The notes under the pieces are model-generated. The model did no database searches. It was not told the DNA's origin and saw only the letters and a list, made by a program, of their open reading frames with translations. A stretch of 36,469 nt of DNA from an uncultured Bacilli bacterium (GTDB taxonomy: Bacteria; Bacillota_I; Bacilli_A; RF39; UBA660), in contig CANQDB010000001.1 in assembly GCA_947591175.1 (NCBI GenBank), positions 1 to 36,469 on the forward strand. The letters are read 5' to 3'. Every line of letters begins with the position of its first letter. Position 1 is the first letter of the stretch. Both the position numbers and the translations under genes were made by a program. This document shows positions 69-36,327 of this stretch, piece by piece.

Positions 69-100
69 ATTATAAGCCAAACATACCCCCCCCCAGTCAA
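69..100 (-). promoter_or_regulatory. Promoter P1 copy 1: TTGACT, 20-nt spacer with G9, TATAAT
   Basis: Minus strand reads TTGACT (95-100), GGGGGGGGG (86-94), TATGTTTGGCT, TATAAT (69-74). Confidence 0.5.
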
Positions 101-3808: not shown

Positions 3809-3839
3809 TAAAAAACCGTGTAGGTTTAGTTACACAGTT
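3809..3839 (-). terminator. Intrinsic terminator after paralog A
   Basis: Minus strand AACTGTGTA-loop-TACACGGTT (9 bp, one G-U) followed by TTTTT. Confidence 0.6.
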
Positions 3840-3858
3840 GGTTACATAAGATTTTAGA

Positions 3859-5859
3859 TTATGGAACCAAAACCAGGTGGAACGAGTTGGTGACGTTCGC
3901 ATCCCCAATGTAGTAGCCGAAGTCGAATACACCCGTACTAGAATTGTGATAGATGCCGCCGCGGCAGAACCAAGGTTGCGACGATTTCACGAAATATTGA
4001 TTGTCATTATACCATCCGGCTGTTTCCGATAAAGCATGTCCATAACATATTCCTTCTTCACATGCTAAAGAAGCAGACTCATCTTCAGGATTCGAACTTG
4101 TGTATAAATCATAATATTTTTCATTTGGAAAGTCTATTCCAACATTCGAACAATCTCCTGAACGACATGTTCCATTAAAGCCCGAATTAGCTACTAGTAA
4201 AAATCCGCTTCTTGGTTGTCCATCGTCATCAGCGAGAACTCCCATGACATATTCATCTGCTCCTCCTGACATATCATACACTCCTGTGATATTTCCAGTA
4301 GTCGAGGCTCCAGGGCCTGCTAATCCTTTTCCATCTTTTAAATCTGTCATATCATCATATTCATATTGTCCTTCTTGTCTAGAGTCTTCTTGAGATGGTG
4401 TTCCATTACTATTTCCCGTTATATAAGTAGTTGATTTATTTTGATATACTTCTTTATTGGCACCATTATATAAAGAATTTCCATACTTTCCATATGTACT
4501 TTGTGAAAGATATGCTATTGCTCCCCACTCACTATTCTTACTCATATGAGTATCTTCTATTCCACTAAATCCATACTCTTCTTTAAATTCATTTGCCATT
4601 TTTTGCGATACTGTAAAGGCTTTAGCCACTTGAATATGTCCCCAGGATACAACATTTGGCTTTATTTGTGGTTTTATTGTATCTACATTACAAGTTTCTT
4701 TACCACTACAAGATGTTTCAGGACTCGTTTCAAATTTTCCATACCAGAATCCTTCTAATTCTTCTTCTCCAAAAGTAAATGCTGGATGTAATTTATAATT
4801 TCCTCCACTTTCTCCTGCTGTTCCACTTAAAAACTGCACCTTTATTTCTCCTGGAGTTTCTTGTGAACCTCCTGCATATTCAGCAATATTTACATAATCA
4901 TACTCATATCTTGGTATCCATACCCACATCGTATTGATATATTGTTCATCAATTACAGTATTTTCTGTAGCCCGAGTCAATGTTTCTCTTTGTTCTTCGA
5001 CTACTGTTACGGCATTAGCCCATTCTTGATTACAATAATTATACCAACTATTATCTTTGTTATCTTTGTCTGCTACTACCCAATTTCCATCTTTATAAAC
5101 AACTGGAATCATTCCTTGGGCTAATTGTGGTGCATTTGGTGTTGGTAATTCTTCACAAGTATTTTGTGATTCATTTTTTGGTTCAAGTGGTGGAGGTAAT
5201 TCTTCATTACTTGCATACACATTAACATTTACTGTGAACGTCTTTCCACCATATACCCATGAACCATTCTCATCAAATTCACTGGCACTTTCATCTATCC
5301 ACATACGATATCTATATGTCTTTTTAAAGTCTTCTTGATTTTCTTCTACCTTATCTTGTTCTAATGTCTTACCATTTCCTTCTTCTATTACAGATGGTTC
5401 TTGGCTTATCCATAGTTTGTTATAGATATTTACTTCTTGATTTGTCCATTTGTTTTGGATTGGTGTTTCACTATCTACTTCTCCTACACTTGTTAAATAT
5501 GTATCTACTACTTTTTCTTCTAGGGTAGAGCCATCTTTCTTCGTTAAATAGATTCCATAGTAAATTGGTGAACCTAGGGTCGTTGCCCTTACTTCGAACT
5601 CAAACATTCCTTGTCCACTTTGAGTTTTTCCATCGTCTGTTGTCATTGGAAAAGCATTTTGAATATTGATACTATTACTTGGCTTTTCGCTTAACTCATC
5701 ATAGACAAAGTATAATCTACCTGTTGTTAAAACGTTTTCTTGTTGTCCTTGTCTAGTATAAGTATAAAATGCATATGTTCCGCCTATCGTTAAGAGAACT
5801 AAACCTAGTACTAAAACTAGTATTAATACTTTCTTTTTTTGATTGTTTTTTTCGTCCAT
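3859..5859 (-). CDS. Family paralog A: SipW-type signal + TasA-like N-module + Cys-rich FGE/C-type-lectin-like C-module (666 aa)
   Basis: KKKVLILVLVLGLVLLTIGGTYAFYTY signal. The N-module is shared with 12528-13979. The C-module motifs WVWIPRYEY, HPAFTFGEEELEGFWYGKFETS, TGNITGVYDMSGGADEY and CRGG are shared with 32097-35042. Confidence 0.85.
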   Translation of the reverse strand: MDEKNNQKKKVLILVLVLGLVLLTIGGTYAFYTYTRQGQQENVLTTGRLYFVYDELSEKPSNSINIQNAFPMTTDDGKTQSGQGMFEFEVRATTLGSPIYYGIYLTKKDGSTLEEKVVDTYLTSVGEVDSETPIQNKWTNQEVNIYNKLWISQEPSVIEEGNGKTLEQDKVEENQEDFKKTYRYRMWIDESASEFDENGSWVYGGKTFTVNVNVYASNEELPPPLEPKNESQNTCEELPTPNAPQLAQGMIPVVYKDGNWVVADKDNKDNSWYNYCNQEWANAVTVVEEQRETLTRATENTVIDEQYINTMWVWIPRYEYDYVNIAEYAGGSQETPGEIKVQFLSGTAGESGGNYKLHPAFTFGEEELEGFWYGKFETSPETSCSGKETCNVDTIKPQIKPNVVSWGHIQVAKAFTVSQKMANEFKEEYGFSGIEDTHMSKNSEWGAIAYLSQSTYGKYGNSLYNGANKEVYQNKSTTYITGNSNGTPSQEDSRQEGQYEYDDMTDLKDGKGLAGPGASTTGNITGVYDMSGGADEYVMGVLADDDGQPRSGFLLVANSGFNGTCRSGDCSNVGIDFPNEKYYDLYTSSNPEDESASLACEEGICYGHALSETAGWYNDNQYFVKSSQPWFCRGGIYHNSSTGVFDFGYYIGDANVTNSFHLVLVP

Positions 5860-5889
5860 AATAAAATCAACTCCCTCTATGTTAATTAC

Positions 5890-5921
5890 ATTATAAGCCT
5901 ATCATACCCCCCCCCAGTCAA
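5890..5921 (-). promoter_or_regulatory. Promoter P1 copy 2: TTGACT, 20-nt spacer with G9, TATAAT
   Basis: Minus strand TTGACT (5916-5921), G9 (5907-5915), TATGATAGGCT, TATAAT (5890-5895). This is the only promoter-like element between the parC terminator and the ATG at 5859. Confidence 0.55.
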
Positions 5922-5931
5922 GCAAATTAAC

Positions 5932-5958
5932 AAAAAACACCTGTCAAATTGACAAGTG
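5932..5958 (-). terminator. Intrinsic terminator after parC; part of the cassette
   Basis: CACTTGTCAATTTGACAGGTG hairpin followed by TTTTTT on the minus strand, 6 nt after the parC stop. Confidence 0.6.
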
Positions 5959-5963
5959 TAAAA

Positions 5964-8495
5964 TTAAATATCTAAGAAATCGTCGATTGTCATCAGACGA
6001 TCATCGATTTCTTTTAACGAGACCGTTTTCTTTACTGGCTCCTTTTGGGCTTCGTTACTTTCGATTTCCATTTCTTCTTTTTTCTCTAAATCCTTAACAA
6101 GGAAGGCATCGATTAATACTCCTTTATGAACTGTACTTCCAGTTGAATAACGATCCATAATTGGAAGTTCCGTTAATTTAATAGTATCGATTCCATCACC
6201 TTTGAAACCCAAATAGTTCTTAGTATCGACTACAAAGGTTCGTAAAACGTGATATGGATTAGTCTTCACTTCCCGGAATAGTAAAAGTCCACGTCTTGCT
6301 CTCGTTGATTTCTCAAAATCTGAAAGTTTAACTCGTTTACCAGTACCTTTATCGGTTACAACTGAAACATACTCGGTATTATTAGCATTGAAACAGGCAA
6401 CACTTACTACTTCGTCATCTTTCAAATTAATTCCTTTAACTCCACTAGTTTTAGTACCGACAAGTGGAATATCATCTCTATCGAACCATAAACCATAGCC
6501 ATTCTTAGTACCGATAAAGATATCGTTATAAGTCGTAAAGAAAGCATCCACGACATGATCTTTATCCTTTAACTTCATACAAGTAACAGGCTTAGTGTAT
6601 CTTGCAATCTTGAAGTCTTTTAAAGGGGTACGCTTAATCATACCACTAGCACTAGCAATCGTAATATCTTGGTTCGTTTCAAATGATGATACTGGAAGGG
6701 CTGCGACTAATTCTTCGGTTTCATCCATTTTGATAATATTACTTATGTGTTTACCTAAATCTTTCCATTTTAAATCAGGTAATTCGTGCACTGGCACAAA
6801 TAGATAATTTCCTAAGTTCGTAAATAATAACAAAGTATCCCAAGTATTAAGTTCAAAGCACCCTATTAGGTAATCGTTTTCTTTAAGACTCGTATCTTCA
6901 TTAGTTGCTTGGAAACTTCTAAAACTACTCCGTTTAACGTAACCATCTCTGGTAACAGTTACAATGACATCTTCTTTTGGAATCATAGCGGACGTATCGA
7001 TTGTAATCTCAGTTATTTCATCCTTGATTTCTGTTTTACGCAGAAGTCCATACTCTTTCTTAACTCGTCTTAATTCTTCTTTCATAACTTCTTTAAGTTT
7101 TTCTTCGTCCGATAGAATTTTTTCAAGGCCTGCTACGACGATTCTTAAATTCTTTAACTCTTCCTCTAGTAAAGTGACATCGGTATTCGTCAATTTATAA
7201 AGTTGTAAGTTGACGATAGCCTCGGCCTGTTCCATCGTAAATTCAAACTCTTTAACTAAGTTTTCTTTAGCATCGGTTTTATTTTTACTACCTCTAATAA
7301 CTCTGATAACTTCATCTAGAATTGAAAGGCACTTGATAAGTCCTTCGACGATATGAAGACGTTTCTTAGCCGTTGCTAAATCGAAATTAGTTCTTCGTAA
7401 AATTACTTCTTTTTGGTGACGGATATAAGCGTCTAACATTGGAATGAGGCCAAGTAAACGCGGTCTTCTATTCTCGATAGCCACCATGTTGTAGTTATAC
7501 GATATTTGTAAATCGGTATTCTTGTATAAATAATTGAGGACTAAATCACGATTACAATCTTTCTTTAAATCAATAGCAATACGTAAACCATCTCTATCTG
7601 ATTCATCACGGACTTCAATCATACCATCGATTTTCTTATCGATTCTAATTTCATCTATTTTACGAACTAATAAAGCCTTGTTTACTTCGAAAGGAATCTC
7701 ATCGATTACTAAGGTGAGTTTTCCTTTTTCTTCTTCGAACCGCGTTTTCGCCCTAACTACTACACGACCTCGACCTGTTTCATAGGCTTCTCTTATTCCG
7801 TCTTTTCCTTCGACAATTCCACCTGTTGGAAAATCAGGTCCTTTGACGATTTCTAATAACGTTTCAAGTCTGCAATTAGGGTTATCGATTCTATGAATCG
7901 TCGCTTGAATAACTTCATCTAAATTGTGAGGTGGAATATTAGTGGCATATCCTGCAGAAATTCCTGTCGTACCACTTACTAAAAGATTTGGGTACTTGGC
8001 AGGAAGTACCGTTGGCTCCATAATCGTATCATCGAAGTTAGGAGCAAACTGAACAGTATCTTTTTCGATATCTTTTAATAGTTCGTTACTAATCTTGGCA
8101 AGACGTGCTTCCGTATAACGGTAAGCAGCAGGGCTATCACCATCGATTGAACCGTTGTTACCATGCATATCGATATATGGATGACGACTCTTCCAATCTT
8201 GACTCATTCGAACCATTGCTTCATAAATAGAACTATCGCCATGCGGATGGAAATTACCGATAACATCTCCGACTGTTTTAGCACTCTTTCGATAGCCATG
8301 GTCGTAAGTGTTTTTTTCTCTAAACATCGAGTACAAAATACGTCTTTGAACAGGCTTTAATCCATCTCTCACATCGGGAATAGCCCTATCTTGAATGATA
8401 TACTTCGAGTAACTTCCAAATCTTTCACCCATTATCTCTTCGAGTGAATAATGATAAATCTTCTCGATAATTTCTTGTGTTTTTTGTTTCTTCAT
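5964..8495 (-). CDS. parC: DNA topoisomerase IV subunit A
   Basis: FGSYSKYIIQDRAIPDVRDGLKPVQRRILY and catalytic AAYRYTEARL. No GyrA-box after VTRDGYVKRSSFRSF. Sits downstream of parE. Confidence 0.9.
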   Translation of the reverse strand: MKKQKTQEIIEKIYHYSLEEIMGERFGSYSKYIIQDRAIPDVRDGLKPVQRRILYSMFREKNTYDHGYRKSAKTVGDVIGNFHPHGDSSIYEAMVRMSQDWKSRHPYIDMHGNNGSIDGDSPAAYRYTEARLAKISNELLKDIEKDTVQFAPNFDDTIMEPTVLPAKYPNLLVSGTTGISAGYATNIPPHNLDEVIQATIHRIDNPNCRLETLLEIVKGPDFPTGGIVEGKDGIREAYETGRGRVVVRAKTRFEEEKGKLTLVIDEIPFEVNKALLVRKIDEIRIDKKIDGMIEVRDESDRDGLRIAIDLKKDCNRDLVLNYLYKNTDLQISYNYNMVAIENRRPRLLGLIPMLDAYIRHQKEVILRRTNFDLATAKKRLHIVEGLIKCLSILDEVIRVIRGSKNKTDAKENLVKEFEFTMEQAEAIVNLQLYKLTNTDVTLLEEELKNLRIVVAGLEKILSDEEKLKEVMKEELRRVKKEYGLLRKTEIKDEITEITIDTSAMIPKEDVIVTVTRDGYVKRSSFRSFQATNEDTSLKENDYLIGCFELNTWDTLLLFTNLGNYLFVPVHELPDLKWKDLGKHISNIIKMDETEELVAALPVSSFETNQDITIASASGMIKRTPLKDFKIARYTKPVTCMKLKDKDHVVDAFFTTYNDIFIGTKNGYGLWFDRDDIPLVGTKTSGVKGINLKDDEVVSVACFNANNTEYVSVVTDKGTGKRVKLSDFEKSTRARRGLLLFREVKTNPYHVLRTFVVDTKNYLGFKGDGIDTIKLTELPIMDRYSTGSTVHKGVLIDAFLVKDLEKKEEMEIESNEAQKEPVKKTVSLKEIDDRLMTIDDFLDI

Positions 8496-12527: not shown

Positions 12528-13979
12528 TTAGGGTTTGACTTGAACTACAGTTTCCGGATTATTAAGATTCATATCACTTGCATTATCAATAAACCATTGC
12601 TTTGTAGAATCATCTTTAACATAGATTGAGGTTAATTGACGACAATAAGCGAACATACCTGACATATCAGTTACGTTTGAAGTGTCCCACCCACTTAAAT
12701 CTAGAGTGGTTAATTGGATACATCCTTGGAACATACCATTCGTTTCTGAATATTCAGAAATTGACAACGTAACTTTAATAGACATTAATTTCAAACTTGA
12801 TGTATCCCAATTACTTAAGTTTAGTGAATTTAAACTACTACATGAGGCAAACATACCACCAGCATTTTCAATTAAACTTGCATTATAATTTGTAAAATCA
12901 ATTGATTTTAAACTCATGAAATAAGCAAAAGAGGAACTAGAATCAGGATTTCCATAGGTCTCTCCATTTGAAGCTATTACTAAATCATTACATTGTGTAG
13001 GAGTACCTTCTTCAAAAAAAGAATTATTACAAGTTACTCCTTCATCATTAGGAATCATGTAAGCCATAACACTTCCATCCTGTTTCTCAGATATATCCCA
13101 TTGATTATCTTTAGAAACACTTTCTGGAATTTCTATTTCGTTTTCGAAACGAATATTGCTTATAGAAACTATTTTATCCATTGTGTGAAAGTCAGTATTT
13201 GAATACATTTGACTAAGATCACCACTCATTAAACTATCAAAATTATAAGTCCAACTTTGCATTACTCCTACTGGGGTTGGAGAAGGTAGTTCTTCATTTG
13301 AGGCATAGACATTTACTTTAACCGTAAAACTCTTTCCTCCATATATCCATTCTCCTTTACCATTAACACCCTCGGCACTTTCATCTAGCCACATACGATA
13401 TCTAAATACCTTAGAGTATTCTTCATTATTAGTACTTGGTATTGTTTCTTGATATAATGATTTACCTTGTTGTCCTTCTTCCAATACTGGTACATGACTA
13501 TTCCATAAGAATTGATATTGGGTTACTCCATTATCTTTTGTCCATTTATTGTCCCAACTTAGTTTAACTAAAGTTTCAGCACTATTTTCTCCTTTTTTAC
13601 CAGTAGTAGTTAAATACGTATCTACTACTTTCTCTGGTAAAGTAGAGCTTTCATCTTTAGTTAAATAAATCTCATAGTTGATATCTGCTCCTTGAGTTTT
13701 GGCTCTTACTTCGAACTCAAACATTCCAGGTTTTTCTTGAACCATTCCCTTTTCATCACTTACTGGAAAGGCATTACCAATTGTAATTTTATTACTGTCT
13801 TCCACGTCTGGTAACTCATCATAAACAAAATATAAAGATCCTGTTGTTAAAACATGTTCCTCTACTCCTTGTCTAGAATAAGTAAAGAAGGCATAAGTAG
13901 TTCCTACTGTTAAGAGAACTAATCCTAATACTAAAACTAGTATCAATACTTTCTTCTTTTGATTTTTCTTTTCTGGCAT
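12528..13979 (-). CDS. Family paralog B: SipW-type signal + TasA-like N-module + DUF285/BspA-type LRR head (483 aa)
   Basis: Start taken at MPEKKNQKKK (ATG 13979, RBS AAGGAG); the upstream extension to 14027 looks spurious. C-terminal repeats MFASCSSLNSLNLSNWDTS and MFQGCIQLTTLDLSGWDTSNVTDMSGMFAYC. Confidence 0.85.
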   Translation of the reverse strand: MPEKKNQKKKVLILVLVLGLVLLTVGTTYAFFTYSRQGVEEHVLTTGSLYFVYDELPDVEDSNKITIGNAFPVSDEKGMVQEKPGMFEFEVRAKTQGADINYEIYLTKDESSTLPEKVVDTYLTTTGKKGENSAETLVKLSWDNKWTKDNGVTQYQFLWNSHVPVLEEGQQGKSLYQETIPSTNNEEYSKVFRYRMWLDESAEGVNGKGEWIYGGKSFTVKVNVYASNEELPSPTPVGVMQSWTYNFDSLMSGDLSQMYSNTDFHTMDKIVSISNIRFENEIEIPESVSKDNQWDISEKQDGSVMAYMIPNDEGVTCNNSFFEEGTPTQCNDLVIASNGETYGNPDSSSSFAYFMSLKSIDFTNYNASLIENAGGMFASCSSLNSLNLSNWDTSSLKLMSIKVTLSISEYSETNGMFQGCIQLTTLDLSGWDTSNVTDMSGMFAYCRQLTSIYVKDDSTKQWFIDNASDMNLNNPETVVQVKP

Positions 13980-14052
13980 AAATAAAAACACACTCCTTAC
14001 TACTTTAGTTTTTACAAAAGAAACCATTCTATACGCTACCTAGTATATTTTT

Positions 14053-14081
14053 AATATACCCGTTTTACGTGTATAAGTCAA
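14053..14081 (-). promoter_or_regulatory. Promoter P2 copy 3: TTGACT, 17 nt, TATATT
   Basis: Minus strand TTGACT (14076-14081), 17-nt spacer, TATATT (14053-14058), about 70 nt upstream of the ATG at 13979. Confidence 0.5.
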
Positions 14082-14164
14082 TTACACTTCAAAAATTTGA
14101 AACCATAAAAGTTTCACTTTACGTGATGTATATTTCCTTTTGTAAGTCCCTCTAGTATATATTA

Positions 14165-14195
14165 ATTATAAGCCAAACATACCCCCCCCAGTCAA
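14165..14195 (-). promoter_or_regulatory. Promoter P1 copy 3: TTGACT, 19-nt spacer with G8, TATAAT
   Basis: TTGACT (14190-14195), G8 (14182-14189), TATGTTTGGCT, TATAAT (14165-14170). Confidence 0.5.
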
Positions 14196-14202
14196 GAAAA
14201 TT

Positions 14203-14232
14203 CAAAAAAAGACCTGTCAAGTTGACAAGTGC
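14203..14232 (-). terminator. Intrinsic terminator after the 274-aa gene; part of the cassette
   Basis: ACTTGTCAA-C-TTGACAGGT hairpin followed by TTTTTTT on the minus strand. Confidence 0.55.
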
Positions 14233-15877: not shown

Positions 15878-17860
15878 TTAAAAAGTTCCCTTAATTTTTT
15901 TGACAATGGAATCTATATCCATCTGATAATTTTTTAAGATATCATCCCTCTTACCACTAGCTCCAAAAGAGTTAACAGTAATTAAGTATTTATCGTTATA
16001 GACAAAGGAATACCACGAGTAAGAAGAAGACGCTTCAATAACAAAAGTTTTAATGGTTGGTGGCAATACACTTTCTTGATACTCTTGTTTTTGTTTCCGA
16101 AAGCGTTCGATCGAAGGCATACTTACAACACGTAAGTCAATTCCTTGGTCTTTTAGTATTTGTCTTGCTTCGATTGCTAGAGCCAACTCTTCACCTGTCG
16201 CAATGATGACACCTTGTAAATATTGTTCTTCTGAAATAACTATATAGCCACCTTTATCAACTTCGTTAACATTAGTACATGGTTGAATTGGTACCTTATT
16301 CCGTCCTAAAATAATTGTGGCCGGTCCATCTTTCTTATTAAGAACTGTCTTGTAAGTACCTATTACTTCGTTAGCATCCGCAGGCCTGAATACTTCGAAA
16401 TTAGGAGTTGCTCGTAAAGAGATAAGTTGTTCAACTGGCTCGTGGGTTGGACCATCTTCCCCGACTGCAATAGAGTCATGAGTCAAAATATATATAACTG
16501 GCAAGTTCATTAAGGCACTCATTCTAAGTGCTGGTTTCAAATAATCCATAAACACTAAGAAAGTCGAGGCAAAAGGACGTAAGCCACAAAGACTCAAGCC
16601 ATTTGAGATAGCAGCCATTGCATGTTCTCTTACCCCATAACGAATATTTTTACCGTTTGGATGATCCTTCGTAAAGTCTTCGAACTCTTTTAAATATGTT
16701 TTGTTACTAGTTGCTAAATCGGCACTTCCGCCTAGAAAGAACGGAGTGGATTCCGCAATAGACTGTAACACTTTACCTGATGCGTCTCTTGTCGACTCCA
16801 TACCATCCTCAGGGGCTTCATAAGTAAGATTTATCTTTTTAAAGTCGATGTCTCTTTTCTCTAAAGATGTAAGAAGTGAAAGAGTCTCTTCGTCTAAACT
16901 TTCCTTTTTACTTTGCCAAGTTTTATAAACTGAATCAACTCGTTCATGAATTTGTTTTTGGAAGTCTTCCATTGCTTCTTTCGATATAGCAAAAGGTAAA
17001 TCGTGAAAATTTAATTTTTCTTTTATTTGCGAAATATCTTCTACATCTAATGGTGTACCATGAACAAGTGGAGTTCCTTCATTTTTAGAATACTTGCCAA
17101 TCGTCGTCTTCACTTCGATTAACGTAGGTCTTTTATCTTCTTGTTTGGCATCACTTATAGCCTTGTCGATTGCCCTTATATCTTCGCCATCTTCAACTAA
17201 GATATAGTTCCAGTTCATCGAAAGGAATCTATCTTTAATATTTTCTGTAAATGTCGTATCCGTCTTACTATCAAGAGACACTTTGTTAGAATCATATAAA
17301 ACAATTAAACGGTTTAAACCTAAAGTTCCAGCAAGAGAGGCGGCTTCGTAAGATACTCCTTCCATTAAATCACCATCACCACAAAGGACATAGGTGTAAT
17401 GATCGATTACTTTTTTCTTAAAAAAGGTGCGTAAGTACACTTCACCAATCGCTAACCCGACAGCACTTGCTATTCCTTGTCCTAAAGGTCCAGTTGATAA
17501 GTCAACACCAATTTTTTCATTTAATTCAGGGTGTCCTGGGGTCTTTGAACCAAATTGCCGAAAATCTTTTAAATCTTCAATTGTAAGAGGAAATCCTCCT
17601 AAAAACAAAGTTGCATAAAGCAAAGCTGACCCATGCCCTGCCGATAACACAAATCTATCTCTGTTAATCCAGGCTGGATCATTTGGATTTGCAACTAAAT
17701 GATGAGCATATAACGTATAAATAATAGGGGCTGCTCCTAGTACAATACCAGGATGCCCATTTCCTGCTTCGTTAATCATATCGAGTCCTAGGATACGTAA
17801 CTGATCAACTATTTTCTTTTCATTGATAGTATTTTCACTCTTACCGATAATTGGAAACAT
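15878..17860 (-). CDS. tkt: Transketolase
   Basis: 660 aa with GNGHPG, ThDP motif GDGDLMEG and HDSIAVGEDGPTHEP. Confidence 0.92.
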   Translation of the reverse strand: MFPIIGKSENTINEKKIVDQLRILGLDMINEAGNGHPGIVLGAAPIIYTLYAHHLVANPNDPAWINRDRFVLSAGHGSALLYATLFLGGFPLTIEDLKDFRQFGSKTPGHPELNEKIGVDLSTGPLGQGIASAVGLAIGEVYLRTFFKKKVIDHYTYVLCGDGDLMEGVSYEAASLAGTLGLNRLIVLYDSNKVSLDSKTDTTFTENIKDRFLSMNWNYILVEDGEDIRAIDKAISDAKQEDKRPTLIEVKTTIGKYSKNEGTPLVHGTPLDVEDISQIKEKLNFHDLPFAISKEAMEDFQKQIHERVDSVYKTWQSKKESLDEETLSLLTSLEKRDIDFKKINLTYEAPEDGMESTRDASGKVLQSIAESTPFFLGGSADLATSNKTYLKEFEDFTKDHPNGKNIRYGVREHAMAAISNGLSLCGLRPFASTFLVFMDYLKPALRMSALMNLPVIYILTHDSIAVGEDGPTHEPVEQLISLRATPNFEVFRPADANEVIGTYKTVLNKKDGPATIILGRNKVPIQPCTNVNEVDKGGYIVISEEQYLQGVIIATGEELALAIEARQILKDQGIDLRVVSMPSIERFRKQKQEYQESVLPPTIKTFVIEASSSYSWYSFVYNDKYLITVNSFGASGKRDDILKNYQMDIDSIVKKIKGTF

Positions 17861-19435: not shown

Positions 19436-19464
19436 TTGAAATAAAATTTAGAATATGTTATTAT
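19436..19464 (+). promoter_or_regulatory. Promoter of the tRNA pair: TTGAAA, 17 nt, TGtTATTAT
   Basis: TTGAAA 19436-19441, 17-nt spacer, extended -10, TATTAT 19459-19464, 12 nt before the tRNA 5' end. Confidence 0.55.
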
Positions 19465-24714: not shown

Positions 24715-24743
24715 ATTTTTAAGAAAAAGTCAAATATTTTTTT
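24715..24743 (-). promoter_or_regulatory. Consensus sigma-A-type promoter: TTGACT, 17 nt, TATAAT
   Basis: Minus strand TTGACT (24738-24743), 17-nt spacer, TATAAT (24715-24720). Confidence 0.6.
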
Positions 24744-29273: not shown

Positions 29274-29302
29274 TTGTTTGAAAGATGACTTCATGATACA
29301 AT
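29274..29302 (+). promoter_or_regulatory. Cyclophilin gene promoter: TTGTTT, 17 nt, TGaTACAAT
   Basis: TTGTTT 29274-29279, 17-nt spacer, extended -10, TACAAT 29297-29302. Confidence 0.45.
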
Positions 29303-30144: not shown

Positions 30145-30173
30145 TTGAAACATATTTTCCCTCATGCTATAAT
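30145..30173 (+). promoter_or_regulatory. Promoter: TTGAAA, 17 nt, TGcTATAAT
   Basis: TTGAAA 30145-30150, 17-nt spacer, extended -10, TATAAT 30168-30173; upstream of the CPBP gene. Confidence 0.55.
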
Positions 30174-32096: not shown

Positions 32097-35042
32097 TTAT
32101 GATACTAATGCTATGCGAAAAGTATTTATATTTCGAGGGGCTCCACTTAATCTATGGGAATTGAAAAGTCCTGTATAATGAAAATCAGTTCTATCACCAT
32201 AGTAACCGCCTCTTTGTCGCCATGGTTCTGTTTTATATATTACCGCCTGTTGATTATTATTCCAAAAACTTACTTCAGATAAGGCATGTCCATAACATAT
32301 TCCGCCATTACACGCTTTATTAATGACGTCACTTGTATATAAATCATAGTATTTTTGTTCTGGACATGGAAGACCCAAATTATAATCTGTATTATCATTT
32401 AATTTACCGTTAAAACCCGAATTAGATGCGGTAGTATTTCCACTTCTTGGGTTCCCATTCTCATCGGCAAAAGCTCCCATTAAATATTCCCAAGATCCTC
32501 CGCTCATATCGTAAATACCATAGATATTTCCGGTTGTTGAGGCCTTTTTCCCAATTGGTGTTTCATATGTATTATTACAATTGGAACTTCCCGCAGCATT
32601 TACGGTATCACCAGCTATTCCTGTTTTAAATAAAGAACAATTATTTTTATATATTTCTTTTTCGGCTCCTTGATAATTAGGATTACCCTGCTTTCCAAAA
32701 TCACTTTGTGATAAATATACTACTGCTCCCCATTCGACATCTTTACTCATATGAATATCATAACTATTATTATTTGCAAAACCATAAAAAGCATAATTAT
32801 CAGTTTGCATTTTTCTAGAAGCATAAAAAGCATTGGAAACGTTTATAGACCTCCATGAAATAACACTTGGCTTTATAATTGGAGTCAACTCCGAAGTATT
32901 TGATTCTCCTTCGTTGGCAAATTTTTCTTCTCTATTACTTGTTTCGAATTTACCAAACCAAATACCTTCCAGTTCTTTATCACCGAATTTAAAGGCCGGA
33001 TGTACTTTATATGTTTTTTCGTCACTTGAAACATTTGTAACTCCAGCTAAAAAGTTTATTCCTATTGCTCCCGGTTGTTCTTGTGTTCCTCCTGCATATA
33101 AATTGCCTAAATTATCATATTTATATTCATATCTTGGAATCCAAGTCCACATTGTATTAATTACATCCATTGAAAGTGGTGTGTTATTTTTTATAGATTC
33201 ACCAACACTAAAATCTAAGTCTACAAGCAAATTAGTTTTATCGCTTAACTCTTTTCCTGCATATATATCTTTTACTTCTTGTTCAGTTAAGACTTGGTGA
33301 TATATTTGTGCTTTTGAATACGTGGCATTAGTATATTCTTGATGAGAAGGGGTAGCAAAATTAGGATTTGCCCCTAAATTAAATGGTGTACGTGATACTT
33401 TCATATTAAGAGGAGTAGACAAAGTATATAAATCAATTAAATTTCCATCTAAATATATTTTTATATCGCTTCCATCAAATACCATAGCAGCTTCATACCA
33501 CTTATTTGTTTCAAGTGTAAGGGAAGTAGTTTTTATAACATATTTTGTTCCATCATAAATACTATAAATAATATGTTCATCCGAGGTAATTGCTAAAAGG
33601 ATACCTGCACCATCGGCATTTCCTATAATATATCCGTTTCCAGATTTAGGAAAACTTTCTACTTTAAATCTAACTACTGTTGAAAAGGCTTGTCCAAAAT
33701 CATATTTTTCTAATCCTAAATCAATATAGTCATCTACTCCATCAGTTGTAGCACTACTTCCATTTGATTTAACATCAGGACTGTATTTGGCATGATTACC
33801 TTTTCCAGACATATCTCTTACCATTGTTTGATCAAGTGTTACAGCATTAGCCCACATTTGATTGTTATAATCAAACCACTTTCCATATTTGTTTGCTTTT
33901 CGCCATACAGCATTCTCTTCATCATAATATACTGGAATTAATCCATCTGTTAACTTAGGTCGATTGGCTCCTGTTGGATCTTCATAAACTTTTACATGGA
34001 TTGTTCTCGTATTACTTCCAATGTTTCCATCTTTATCTATAGCAAAATAATTTATAACATAATCTCCAAAACTTTCTATGTTATAACTTCCAATTGTTAT
34101 TACTGTTAGAGGTGTTCCTTGTTCATCTATAGCACTGGCCCCTTTATCTTCATAACTTTGACCGACATATAGATTTACTTCTCCTTCTCCATTTAAAGTA
34201 ACAACTGGAACAGTTTTGTTTACTTGTACTACATTTACTGTCCTTGCTGCTACTCCTTTGTTTCCTCTTGTATCTAATAATTCGTAGTAAATTATATAAA
34301 CTCCTTCTTGATTAGTATTTACTCCATCTACTACACTTGTACTTTCTCCGTTAAAATATTCGTATCTTTTAGTTACTTTGTTACTTGTTAAACTATCGAC
34401 ATTATCACTTACACTAGCTACTCCTGGATCACTAAACTCTTTTCCCTTTTCAACTGTCATTACTCTTTCGCCACTTAAAGTTATTGTTGGGGCTATATAA
34501 TCTTCAAAAGCATAGGCTTTAGATTCTTCGGCTACGACTTGAATTCTTCCTTTCCACGTCTTTCCCATTGCTTCGTTTCCTGTTTTCTCATCTAACCATA
34601 GCCTTAACTCATAAGTATCTTTTTGTAATCCATCTAGAGTTACGTTATCTTTTATAACAAGATCATTTAAATTACTGATTGTTCCTTCTTCTCCTTGTTT
34701 CTTTAACTCATATCTTAAACTACCTCTATTTAAAGTGTTACCTTCATCTTCTACTATACTTATTTGATATTTAGCCGAAATATTTCCTTTATTTTCGACA
34801 CTAAAAATAAAAGGCTCTAAGTTCTTTCCTTCGTCATCTTTCATGGGATAAGTATTCTTTAAAGAGATAGCTCCACTTTCCTCTTGAAAATTCACTTGAA
34901 AGATTCCTGTTGCCATACTATTTTGTTTTTTTCCTTCTTTCGAATAAACAAAAAAGGCATAACTTGTTCCAATTAATACAAGAAGAGAAAACATTATAGA
35001 AAGACACCATACAAATTTCTTTTTAGAACTTATTTCTTTCAT
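32097..35042 (-). CDS. Family paralog C: SipW-type signal + divergent TasA-like N-module + 2 Ig-like (DUF5011-type) + LamG + FGE/C-type-lectin-like module (981 aa)
   Basis: LLVLIGTSYAFFVYSKEG signal. Two PTITLSG/PVVTLNG Ig-like repeats. LamG-like block TTDGVDDYIDLG...WYEAAMVFDG..IKIYLDGNL. C-module motifs shared with paralog A. The ATG at 35042 lies 10 nt after AAGGAG. Confidence 0.85.
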   Translation of the reverse strand: MKEISSKKKFVWCLSIMFSLLVLIGTSYAFFVYSKEGKKQNSMATGIFQVNFQEESGAISLKNTYPMKDDEGKNLEPFIFSVENKGNISAKYQISIVEDEGNTLNRGSLRYELKKQGEEGTISNLNDLVIKDNVTLDGLQKDTYELRLWLDEKTGNEAMGKTWKGRIQVVAEESKAYAFEDYIAPTITLSGERVMTVEKGKEFSDPGVASVSDNVDSLTSNKVTKRYEYFNGESTSVVDGVNTNQEGVYIIYYELLDTRGNKGVAARTVNVVQVNKTVPVVTLNGEGEVNLYVGQSYEDKGASAIDEQGTPLTVITIGSYNIESFGDYVINYFAIDKDGNIGSNTRTIHVKVYEDPTGANRPKLTDGLIPVYYDEENAVWRKANKYGKWFDYNNQMWANAVTLDQTMVRDMSGKGNHAKYSPDVKSNGSSATTDGVDDYIDLGLEKYDFGQAFSTVVRFKVESFPKSGNGYIIGNADGAGILLAITSDEHIIYSIYDGTKYVIKTTSLTLETNKWYEAAMVFDGSDIKIYLDGNLIDLYTLSTPLNMKVSRTPFNLGANPNFATPSHQEYTNATYSKAQIYHQVLTEQEVKDIYAGKELSDKTNLLVDLDFSVGESIKNNTPLSMDVINTMWTWIPRYEYKYDNLGNLYAGGTQEQPGAIGINFLAGVTNVSSDEKTYKVHPAFKFGDKELEGIWFGKFETSNREEKFANEGESNTSELTPIIKPSVISWRSINVSNAFYASRKMQTDNYAFYGFANNNSYDIHMSKDVEWGAVVYLSQSDFGKQGNPNYQGAEKEIYKNNCSLFKTGIAGDTVNAAGSSNCNNTYETPIGKKASTTGNIYGIYDMSGGSWEYLMGAFADENGNPRSGNTTASNSGFNGKLNDNTDYNLGLPCPEQKYYDLYTSDVINKACNGGICYGHALSEVSFWNNNQQAVIYKTEPWRQRGGYYGDRTDFHYTGLFNSHRLSGAPRNINTFRIALVS

Positions 35043-35101: not shown

Positions 35102-35130
35102 ATAATACTCACTTCTGGTGTATAAGTCAA
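35102..35130 (-). promoter_or_regulatory. Promoter P2 copy 4: TTGACT, 17 nt, TATTAT
   Basis: TTGACT 35125-35130, 17-nt spacer, TATTAT 35102-35107. The spacer sequence differs from copy 3 but its length is the same. Confidence 0.5.
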
Positions 35131-35212
35131 TTGCACTTCAAAATTTGAAACCCTTAAAGTTTCACTTTACGTGAAGTATATTTCCTTTTGCAACTCCCTC
35201 TAGTATATATTT

Positions 35213-35244
35213 ATTATAGCCCAAACATACCCCCCCCCAGTCAA
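35213..35244 (-). promoter_or_regulatory. Promoter P1 copy 4: TTGACT, 20-nt spacer with G9, TATAAT
   Basis: TTGACT 35239-35244, G9 35230-35238, TATGTTTGGGC, TATAAT 35213-35218. Confidence 0.5.
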
Positions 35245-36190: not shown

Positions 36191-36292
36191 ACTATACCTC
36201 CTTTAAAATATACTAGACTCGCTTTTTAAGGTGGAAACCATTGTTTCACTTAAACCTGTTCAATGCGGTTTGAGCACAAGAGGCTTCAAACA
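36191..36292 (-). ncRNA. Structured 5' leader of rplU, candidate L21-leader-type element
   Basis: Two hairpins on the minus strand: GUUUGA...UCAAAC, and an imperfect 12-bp hairpin UUUAAGUGAAAC-AAUG-GUUUCCACCUUAAA. They lie between the predicted promoter and the RBS. Confidence 0.4.
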
Positions 36293-36298
36293 TCTATG

Positions 36299-36327
36299 AG
36301 TCTACCACAAAAGTCTTATTTCGTCAA
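36299..36327 (-). promoter_or_regulatory. rplU promoter: TTGACG, 17 nt, TAGACT
   Basis: TTGACG 36322-36327, 17-nt spacer, TAGACT 36299-36304. Confidence 0.45.

Follow-up and report, generated by a model that had tools for sequence, protein, structure and literature searches.

The window analyzed here, a stretch of 36,469 nt from an uncultured Bacilli bacterium, contains a gene for a predicted surface protein of 666 amino acids (aa), and between the −35 and −10 hexamers of the promoter of this gene lies a run of nine G residues. This configuration raises the question of whether the G run acts as a slipped-strand phase switch, as the initial annotation proposed for this gene and for three further copies of the same arrangement, or whether it plays another role, such as that of a fixed regulatory element or of a joint at which mobile cassettes recombine.

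Poly-G promoter cassettes in the window

The promoter of the 666-aa gene, denoted P1 of cassette 2, reads TTGACT-GGGGGGGGG-TATGATAGGCT-TATAAT on the minus strand (5921..5890), where GGGGGGGGG is the G9 homopolymer. The −35 hexamer TTGACT occupies positions 5916..5921, the G9 tract, the candidate slipped-strand switch, positions 5907..5915, and the −10 hexamer TATAAT, at a distance of 20 nt from the −35 hexamer, positions 5890..5895; further downstream on the same strand, the ribosome-binding site GAGGGAG (5871..5877) precedes the ATG at 5859. All these elements were read on the minus strand as the initial annotation had described them. The terminator scan identified, after parC, an intrinsic terminator hairpin followed by a T-run (ACACTTGTCAA-T-TTGACAGGTGT; 5937..5959, minus strand), which delimits cassette 2 on its 5′ side and shields P1 against read-through, and a second terminator after the 666-aa gene (3839..3814, minus strand). 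Bracketed by these terminators, the gene is monocistronic, and P1 is its only plausible promoter. The other promoter-like match near the gene, TTAACA-16-TATTAT (5885..5858), overlaps the start codon and therefore cannot express it, so that the earlier statement that no other promoter is apparent after the parC terminator holds. On direct reading, an alternative −10 element just after the G tract (TATGAT/TATGTT) and an alternative −35 element at 17-nt spacing (ACTGGG) were both rejected as poor matches.

The same layout was found where it had been reported at three further loci, all on the minus strand. P1 of cassette 1 (69..100) reads TTGACT-G9-TATGTTTGGCT-TATAAT, with the tract at 86-94, a spacer of 20 nt, and a terminator hairpin at ~117-137; the downstream gene of this cassette falls beyond the window edge. 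P1 of cassette 3 (14165..14195) reads TTGACT-G8-TATGTTTGGCT-TATAAT, with the tract at 14182-14189, a spacer of 19 nt, and a terminator hairpin at 14212-14230, and P1 of cassette 4 (35213..35244) reads TTGACT-G9-TATGTTTGGGC-TATAAT, with the tract at 35230-35238 and a spacer of 20 nt. The core common to all four copies is CTTGACT-G8/9-TATG.T.GG..TATAAT, followed by TAGAGG. In cassettes 3 and 4, a second promoter, P2, lies between P1 and the gene on the minus strand, namely, TTGACT-17-TATATT at 14053..14081 and TTGACT-17-TATTAT at 35102..35130. The spacers of the four P1 promoters (20, 20, 19, and 20 nt) thus compare with 17 nt in the other good promoters of the window. The initial annotation listed seven promoters for this comparison, and the 17-nt spacing was found at 30145-30173, 19436-19464, 29274-29302, 36299-36327, and both P2 copies, but the segment at 24715-24743 is not bounded by hexamers.

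In a window with a G+C content of 33.9%, G runs of this length are highly unexpected. A search for G8 on both strands produced matches at the four cassette loci only, each between TTGACT and TATAAT. The 7 matches observed compare with a mean of 0.07 in 100 dinucleotide-preserving shuffles, none of which reached 7, and so the four tracts are indeed, as claimed, the only G/C runs of at least 8 nt in the window. Also as noted before, the tract length differs between the copies in the window (G8 versus G9), a difference among paralogs.

The similarity between the cassettes extends beyond the promoter. A palindromic terminator hairpin, CACTTGTCAA-T-TTGACAGGTG, precedes cassettes 1–3 in near-identical copies (117-137, 5937-5959, and 14212-14230, minus strand) and looks like a part of the duplicated module; in cassette 4, the rpmA terminator lies upstream in its place. 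Both arms of the shared hairpin include the motif TTGACA. In cassettes 1, 3, and 4, P1 is followed by an 85-nt leader that is 91–93% identical among the copies (1-68, 14082-14164, and 35131-35212, minus strand), whereas between P2 and the start codon the conservation is lower (74% identity). The leader of cassette 1 contains a 9-nt duplication (ATATACTAG). The leaders of cassettes 3 and 4 fold no better than shuffled sequences (z = −1.4 and −0.75), and the idea that they contain a riboswitch or an attenuator was therefore dropped. A search against Rfam gave no match within or close to the cassettes, and its only matches elsewhere in the window were two tRNAs and an L21 leader. The L21_leader match (36206-36280, minus strand) scored 36.2 bits, against a gathering score of 36; it is located upstream of the rplU-prp-rpmA operon and is preceded by the promoter TTGACG-17-TAGACT at 36327..36299.

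The products of the genes downstream of these promoters share domains in a modular fashion. The 666-aa protein of cassette 2 (3859..5859, minus strand) consists of a signal-anchor, an N-domain of ~220 aa, and a C-domain of ~370 aa. The gene of cassette 3 (12528..13979, minus strand) was listed as a 499-aa open reading frame (ORF) from 14027, with the likely start at ATG 13979, after AAGGAG, and that of cassette 4 (32097..35042, minus strand) as a 984-aa ORF from TTG 35051, with the likely start at ATG 35042. The N-terminal module of ~220 aa (signal-anchor and domain) is common to the 666-aa and 499-aa proteins (60% identity), and the C-terminal domain of ~370 aa is common to the 666-aa and 984-aa proteins (45% identity). 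In addition, the 499-aa protein carries C-terminal DUF285/PARCEL surface-protein repeats, and the 984-aa protein contains Bact_surface_Ig-like and Laminin_G_3 domains. Judging by their sequences, the products appear to be secreted or surface proteins of a large modular family, for which 4229 homologs were retrieved, overwhelmingly from human-gut metagenome assemblies; PF12389 is present in two of the homologs.

The 666-aa protein itself had no sequence match in Pfam, NCBIfam, or PDB, and in exact-protein look-ups neither this protein nor its NCBI-only homologs (P0002, P0004, and P0006) had a record. No lipobox Cys was found in the signal-anchor, after the hydrophobic stretch of the N-termini (MDEKNNQKKKVLILVLVLGLVLLTIGGTYAFY...), and a SipW-type signal peptide, considered as a candidate, had no statistical support (TIGR04088 matched only at E = 4.8). 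The AF2 model of the 666-aa protein is of low confidence (pLDDT 58.6), and therefore its best fold match in PDB, the TasA fibre (8aur_A; E = 8e-4, TM 0.35), is a hint only. The C-domain (residues ~300-666) displays the motifs MWVWIPRYEY, HPAF, GFWYGKFE, SEWGAVAYLSQSKYGK, GVYDMSGG, and RGG...SFRLVL, which may resemble those of the FGE-sulfatase/SUMF1-like fold.

Position and length of the tract in homologous promoters

The tract is retained in relatives of the window. A DNA-pattern scan of the GTDB representative genomes (TTGACTGG..GTATG...TATAAT) gave two chance matches, neither with a G tract. A profile-based scan of metagenome contigs yielded 80 loci, of which 57 had a readable upstream region, and a G run of at least 7 nt was found upstream of the family ORF in 19 of these 57 loci. 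Across 608 kb of homologous family loci, mostly from human-gut metagenomes (29.7% G+C), there are 39 G/C runs of at least 7 nt, compared to 4.8 expected from the composition, and 37 of the 39, all but those in L017 and L067, lie in the promoter region upstream of a family gene and on the same strand as that gene. The tract is placed between the −35 and −10 hexamers in more than 25 homologous promoters. Two relatives, L004 and L005, with 62% and 48% protein identity, keep G8 and G9, respectively, in a spacer that differs otherwise: TTGACT-G8-TTGATTTAAT-TATAAT in L004 (spacer 18 nt) and TTGACA-T-G9-TAGTTT-TATAAT in L005 (spacer 16 nt), where the tract is the sole G run of at least 7 nt in 22 kb.

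The distribution of the spacer lengths was compiled for those tract-bearing promoters in which the hexamers agree with the consensus at 10 or more of the 12 positions. The most common spacer is 19 nt, with ten metagenome cassettes (L026, L035, L040, L044, L054, L057, L086, L091, L093, and L095) and cassette 3 of the window, followed by 20 nt, with L029, L015, and the three remaining window cassettes. Shorter spacers are represented by 18 nt (L004), 17 nt (L055), 16 nt (L005, L030, L031, and L090), and 15 nt (L013 and L014), and at one locus with weaker boxes, the spacer reaches 22 nt. In the homologous cassettes lacking the tract, the spacer is exactly 17 nt, with the configurations TTGACA-17-TATAAT (L035 and L077, whose leader also occurs in the G9 cassette L055), TTGACT-17-TATAAT (L087), TTGACT-17-TATACT (L063 and L081), and TTGTAA-17-TATAAT (L006-L011). 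Thus, these are ordinary promoters of the housekeeping sigma factor with a natural optimum of 17 nt, and the tract shifts them off this optimum.

Two other features were observed among the homologous loci. In L063:1890-2022 and L081:1890-2022, an A8 run directly follows the −35 hexamer, at the position of the G tract (TTGACT-AAAAAAAA-CAATTATTA-TATACT, spacer 17 nt); this run is perhaps the equivalent of the G tract in A residues, or perhaps nothing more than AT-rich sequence. Furthermore, a second class of tracts, G9-G10, is located ~85-180 nt upstream of family ORFs and is not followed by a clear −10 hexamer (L018:1487, L022:228 and 2284, L070:2372, L021:2758, and L045:2552). L022 contains two tandem copies of this class, G9 and G10, and some of the leaders include a terminator-like hairpin (AAGAACAGGATA...TATCTTGTTCTTTTT). 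This second class may represent a different regulatory layout.

Comparison of tract lengths across related metagenomes, the check that had been suggested for the phase-switch proposal, revealed differences between contigs that are otherwise near-identical over ~2 kb. One orthologous locus, consisting of a radical-SAM gene, a 221-aa gene, the family gene, and recD2, was recovered from several independent samples. Contigs encoding the identical protein P0048 have G9 with a spacer of 18 nt (L097) or G11 with a spacer of 20 nt (L099 and L100), and L097 and L099 are identical at 45 of 45 positions upstream and 1933 of 1933 positions downstream of the tract; L098, another contig with P0048, starts within the tract. 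Likewise, L101 and L102, which encode the identical protein P0024, have G7AGG (spacer 19 nt) and G10AGG (spacer 22 nt), respectively, with 103 of 104 upstream and 1933 of 1933 downstream positions identical. Another contig of the same locus, L066, carries an interrupted tract, G5AG4, with a spacer of 18 nt. The spacers at the radical-SAM/recD2 locus span 18-22 nt; all these lengths are to be read with the reservation that short-read consensus lengths of G9-G13 runs carry some error. A tract length that is the only or nearly the only difference in ~2 kb is the signature of a hypermutable repeat. This polymorphism between near-identical sequences pertains to homologous loci, and the variation among the window's own tracts (G8 versus G9) is that of paralogs. 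Several contigs start or end in or beside the tract (L098:1, inside the tract; L100:1-18, L016:1-23, L022:2284-2303, L071:1424-1458, and L050:1). Such breaks are suggestive of length heterogeneity within samples, with which they are compatible; poor sequencing through G runs could contribute.

Probable slipped-strand switching and possible alternative roles of the tract

The tract probably makes P1 a slipped-strand switch like the promoters of porA, tp0126, and vlp, and the cassettes are probably self-contained modules that switch independently of each other. Under this model, each cassette would combine a terminator that blocks read-through, a SigA-type (sigma-70) promoter, a strong ribosome-binding site in a short leader, and a surface-protein gene. 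The G run would be a hot spot of slipped-strand mispairing, such that gain or loss of G residues during replication alters how far apart the −35 and −10 hexamers lie. A spacing of ~17-18 nt would be near-optimal and correspond to the ON state, whereas a spacing of 19-20 nt or more would leave the promoter weak or OFF. With its own switch, insulated by the upstream terminator, each family member would be switched stochastically, heritably, and independently.

By this arithmetic, with window spacers of 20, 20, 19, and 20 nt, a weak or OFF state is predicted for each of the four P1 promoters as assembled, and loss of 2-3 G residues (to G6-G7) would restore a spacing of 17-18 nt. Most of the spacers observed among the homologs are 19-20 nt as well, and hence few copies would be in the predicted ON state. 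We infer the start of transcription at this −10 hexamer, the assignment of tract lengths to ON and OFF, and reversible switching within a clonal population from these configurations. The phase-switch proposal of the initial annotation is strengthened by the polymorphism of the homologous loci, the conservation of the tract, and the 17-nt spacing of the tract-free homologs, but complete ON/OFF switching may not apply to cassettes 3 and 4. In these two cassettes, the tract-free P2 lies between P1 and the gene, so that P1 may modulate the genes rather than gate them.

Not all observations fit a freely drifting tract. G8 is the commonest length (16 of the 39 runs), and it prevails in cassette classes with fixed spacer parts that differ by 3 nt (8 nt or 11 nt, resulting in spacers of 16 nt and 19 nt). 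Moreover, about ten related cassettes with the configuration TTGACA-ACCT-G8-TGTTTTA-TATAAT all hold G8 and the 19-nt spacer despite substitutions in the flanks, although these copies are phylogenetically non-independent. The constancy of G8 could point to a conserved motif and not to a tract that drifts freely, although known contingency tracts typically have a modal length as well. These regularities are what would be expected if the G run were a fixed cis-element, either a regulator site or a structural spacer that makes 19 nt functional, and the promoters were regulated or constitutive but not stochastic. A precedent for the involvement of a regulator exists in the poly-G promoters of the Treponema pallidum tpr genes, where a CRP-like regulator acts together with the tract length (PMC7864442). 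However, a fixed element is difficult to reconcile with contigs from different samples that over ~2 kb differ solely or nearly solely in the tract (G9/G11 and G7AGG/G10AGG), with spacers that vary from 15 to 22 nt, with homologous promoters that dispense with the tract and have exactly 17 nt, or with the interrupted G5AG4 tract and 18-nt spacer in L066. Nor do the cassettes of the window have an associated regulator gene. We therefore consider a fixed cis-element unlikely.

A further possibility is that the tract serves mainly as a joint at which a mobile cassette recombines or inserts, for example through template switching or promoter swapping, and that its effect on the spacing is incidental. 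The genomic context provides some grounds for this scenario, because the cassettes are insertions with respect to a syntenic sister genome. In GCA_947629165.1, the closest genome found (ParC 84% identical), the gene order is the same as in the window (278 aa, PGM, parE, 188 aa, parC, Polysacc_synt, Zn-ribbon, and Yip1), but family genes are absent both after parC and before PGM, and the intergenic regions at the positions of the cassettes are only 50-100 nt long. The sites compared were 3814-5959, 12528-14230, and 1-137 in the window and 5986-6034, 12533-12633, and 16470-16528 in the sister genome (L103). In the sister genome, moreover, parC ends in a terminator unlike that of the window, the shared hairpin is missing from the region downstream of Yip1 (the position of cassette 1 in the window), and 22.5 kb contain no G run of at least 7 nt. 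The shared hairpin of the window stands where that genome has its native terminators. Thus, at least cassettes 2 and 3 are lineage-specific insertions between housekeeping genes, and the inserted unit consists of the terminator hairpin, the G-tract promoter, and the gene. (For cassette 4, the L27 look-up returned one 1.2-kb contig that ends before the cassette.)

The terminator hairpin at the 5′ edge that is common to cassettes 1-3 fits a mobile unit. Furthermore, the identical protein P0055 is preceded in different contigs (L013:1-120 and L014:1-109 versus L015:1040-1141) by unrelated upstream segments, TTGACA-ACATT in L013/L014 and TTGCAA-AAATCACTT in L015, that diverge exactly at the G11 tract. 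Either the promoters were swapped when the tract recombined, or unrelated sequences were joined in assembly across the homopolymer; the second possibility weakens the case for a joint. In the window, the cassettes are homologous well upstream of the tract, up to and including the −35 box and the terminator, so that the insertion boundary is not at the tract, and no recombinase or transposase adjoins the cassettes. A role in recombination also leaves unexplained why the tract constantly lies between consensus −35 and −10 hexamers. A joint as the main function of the tract is accordingly quite improbable.

The reading of the runs as artefacts of sequencing or assembly (two-color Illumina poly-G or homopolymer miscalls) is prompted by messy G-rich contig ends, such as that of L016, which begins with GGGTGAGAGAG-G13, and by the error-prone lengths of homopolymers, but it is effectively refuted for the existence of the tracts, albeit not for their exact lengths, because the runs are internal to long contigs with unique sequence on both flanks, recur at an identical place in the promoter across dozens of independently produced assemblies, which come from various projects and assemblers (NCBI MAG, ENA metaSPAdes, and MEGAHIT contigs), and are absent from the remaining ~600 kb.

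Slipped-strand switching thus remains the preferred explanation of the tracts. A broader version of it, which we put forward tentatively and regard as somewhat doubtful, is that the cassettes are portable, self-insulated modules of terminator, poly-G promoter, and export signal that have spread and diversified in uncultured human-gut Bacilli by insertion between housekeeping genes, with the tract doubling as a recombination joint at which promoter halves are exchanged, and that they constitute a multi-locus, repeat-driven phasome of a commensal Gram-positive lineage.

Comparison with known phase-variable promoters

Nearly all the work on phase variation driven by repeat tracts concerns pathogens, such as Neisseria, Haemophilus, Campylobacter, Treponema, and mycoplasmas. 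The switches known from gut commensals are mostly invertible promoters in Bacteroidales. According to a recent review, multi-locus, repeat-driven phasome repertoires are apparently restricted to pathogens (PMC11868660). The presence of at least four candidate switches in 36 kb of a gut Bacilli genome bears on whether multi-locus repeat-driven phase variation is indeed confined to pathogens (PMC11868660). The same promoter design occurs in many human-gut metagenome contigs and is polymorphic between samples, so that the proposal can be tested with existing metagenomic reads. There are also practical implications: assemblies of these organisms tend to fragment at the tracts, and the expression of a large, unannotated family of surface proteins would not be predictable from the presence of the genes alone.

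No earlier description of these poly-G cassettes was found in the literature searched; similar promoters are well characterized elsewhere. In porA of Neisseria meningitidis, a poly-G tract lies between the −35 hexamer and the −10 hexamer, and expression is set by the spacer length, with an optimum of 17 nt (PMC7864442). The shared feature is that a surface-protein gene has a sigma-70-type promoter with a G homopolymer in its spacer. However, porA is a single-copy porin gene of a Gram-negative pathogen, whereas the cassettes described here drive a multigene family of unrelated proteins in uncultured gut Bacilli. In addition, the known non-optimal spacers of porA are shorter than 17 nt, but those found here mostly exceed the optimum.

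In T. pallidum, tp0126 likewise has a poly-G tract between the −35 and −10 hexamers and is optimally expressed with a 17-nt spacer (PMC7864442). Together with tprE, tprG, tprJ, and tprL, it belongs to several genes for putative surface proteins with promoter poly-G tracts of 7-12 nt (PMC7864442). The lengths of these tracts vary within and between isolates, and the output of reporters depends on the length (PMC7864442). T. pallidum is a spirochaete pathogen in which some of the tracts lie just upstream of the transcription start and a CRP-like co-regulator is involved, and its gene family is unrelated to the present one.

In Bordetella pertussis, a poly-C tract in the promoters of fim2 and fim3 alters the spacing of promoter elements and thereby causes phase variation of genes for surface structures. 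There, the tract sets the distance between the BvgA site and the −10 hexamer, and there is no good −35 hexamer, whereas in the cassettes of the window both hexamers are near the consensus and no activator is implied.

In Mycoplasma hyorhinis, every gene of the vlp system has a conserved promoter with poly-A in its spacer and encodes a conserved export signal at the N-terminus, and the genes are turned ON and OFF independently, in a combinatorial manner. This system, which is referenced in PMC11868660, is the closest analogue in overall design: a multigene surface family with a homopolymer in each promoter spacer. The differences are that the vlp tract is poly-A rather than poly-G, that the Vlp proteins are lipoproteins with a lipobox and do not belong to the present family, in which no Cys lipobox is found, and that mycoplasmas are wall-less pathogens, whereas the relatives analyzed here have cell-wall genes (murB and murG in L005). 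The proposed mechanism is already known; here its setting would be an uncultured and unstudied commensal Gram-positive lineage of gut Bacilli.
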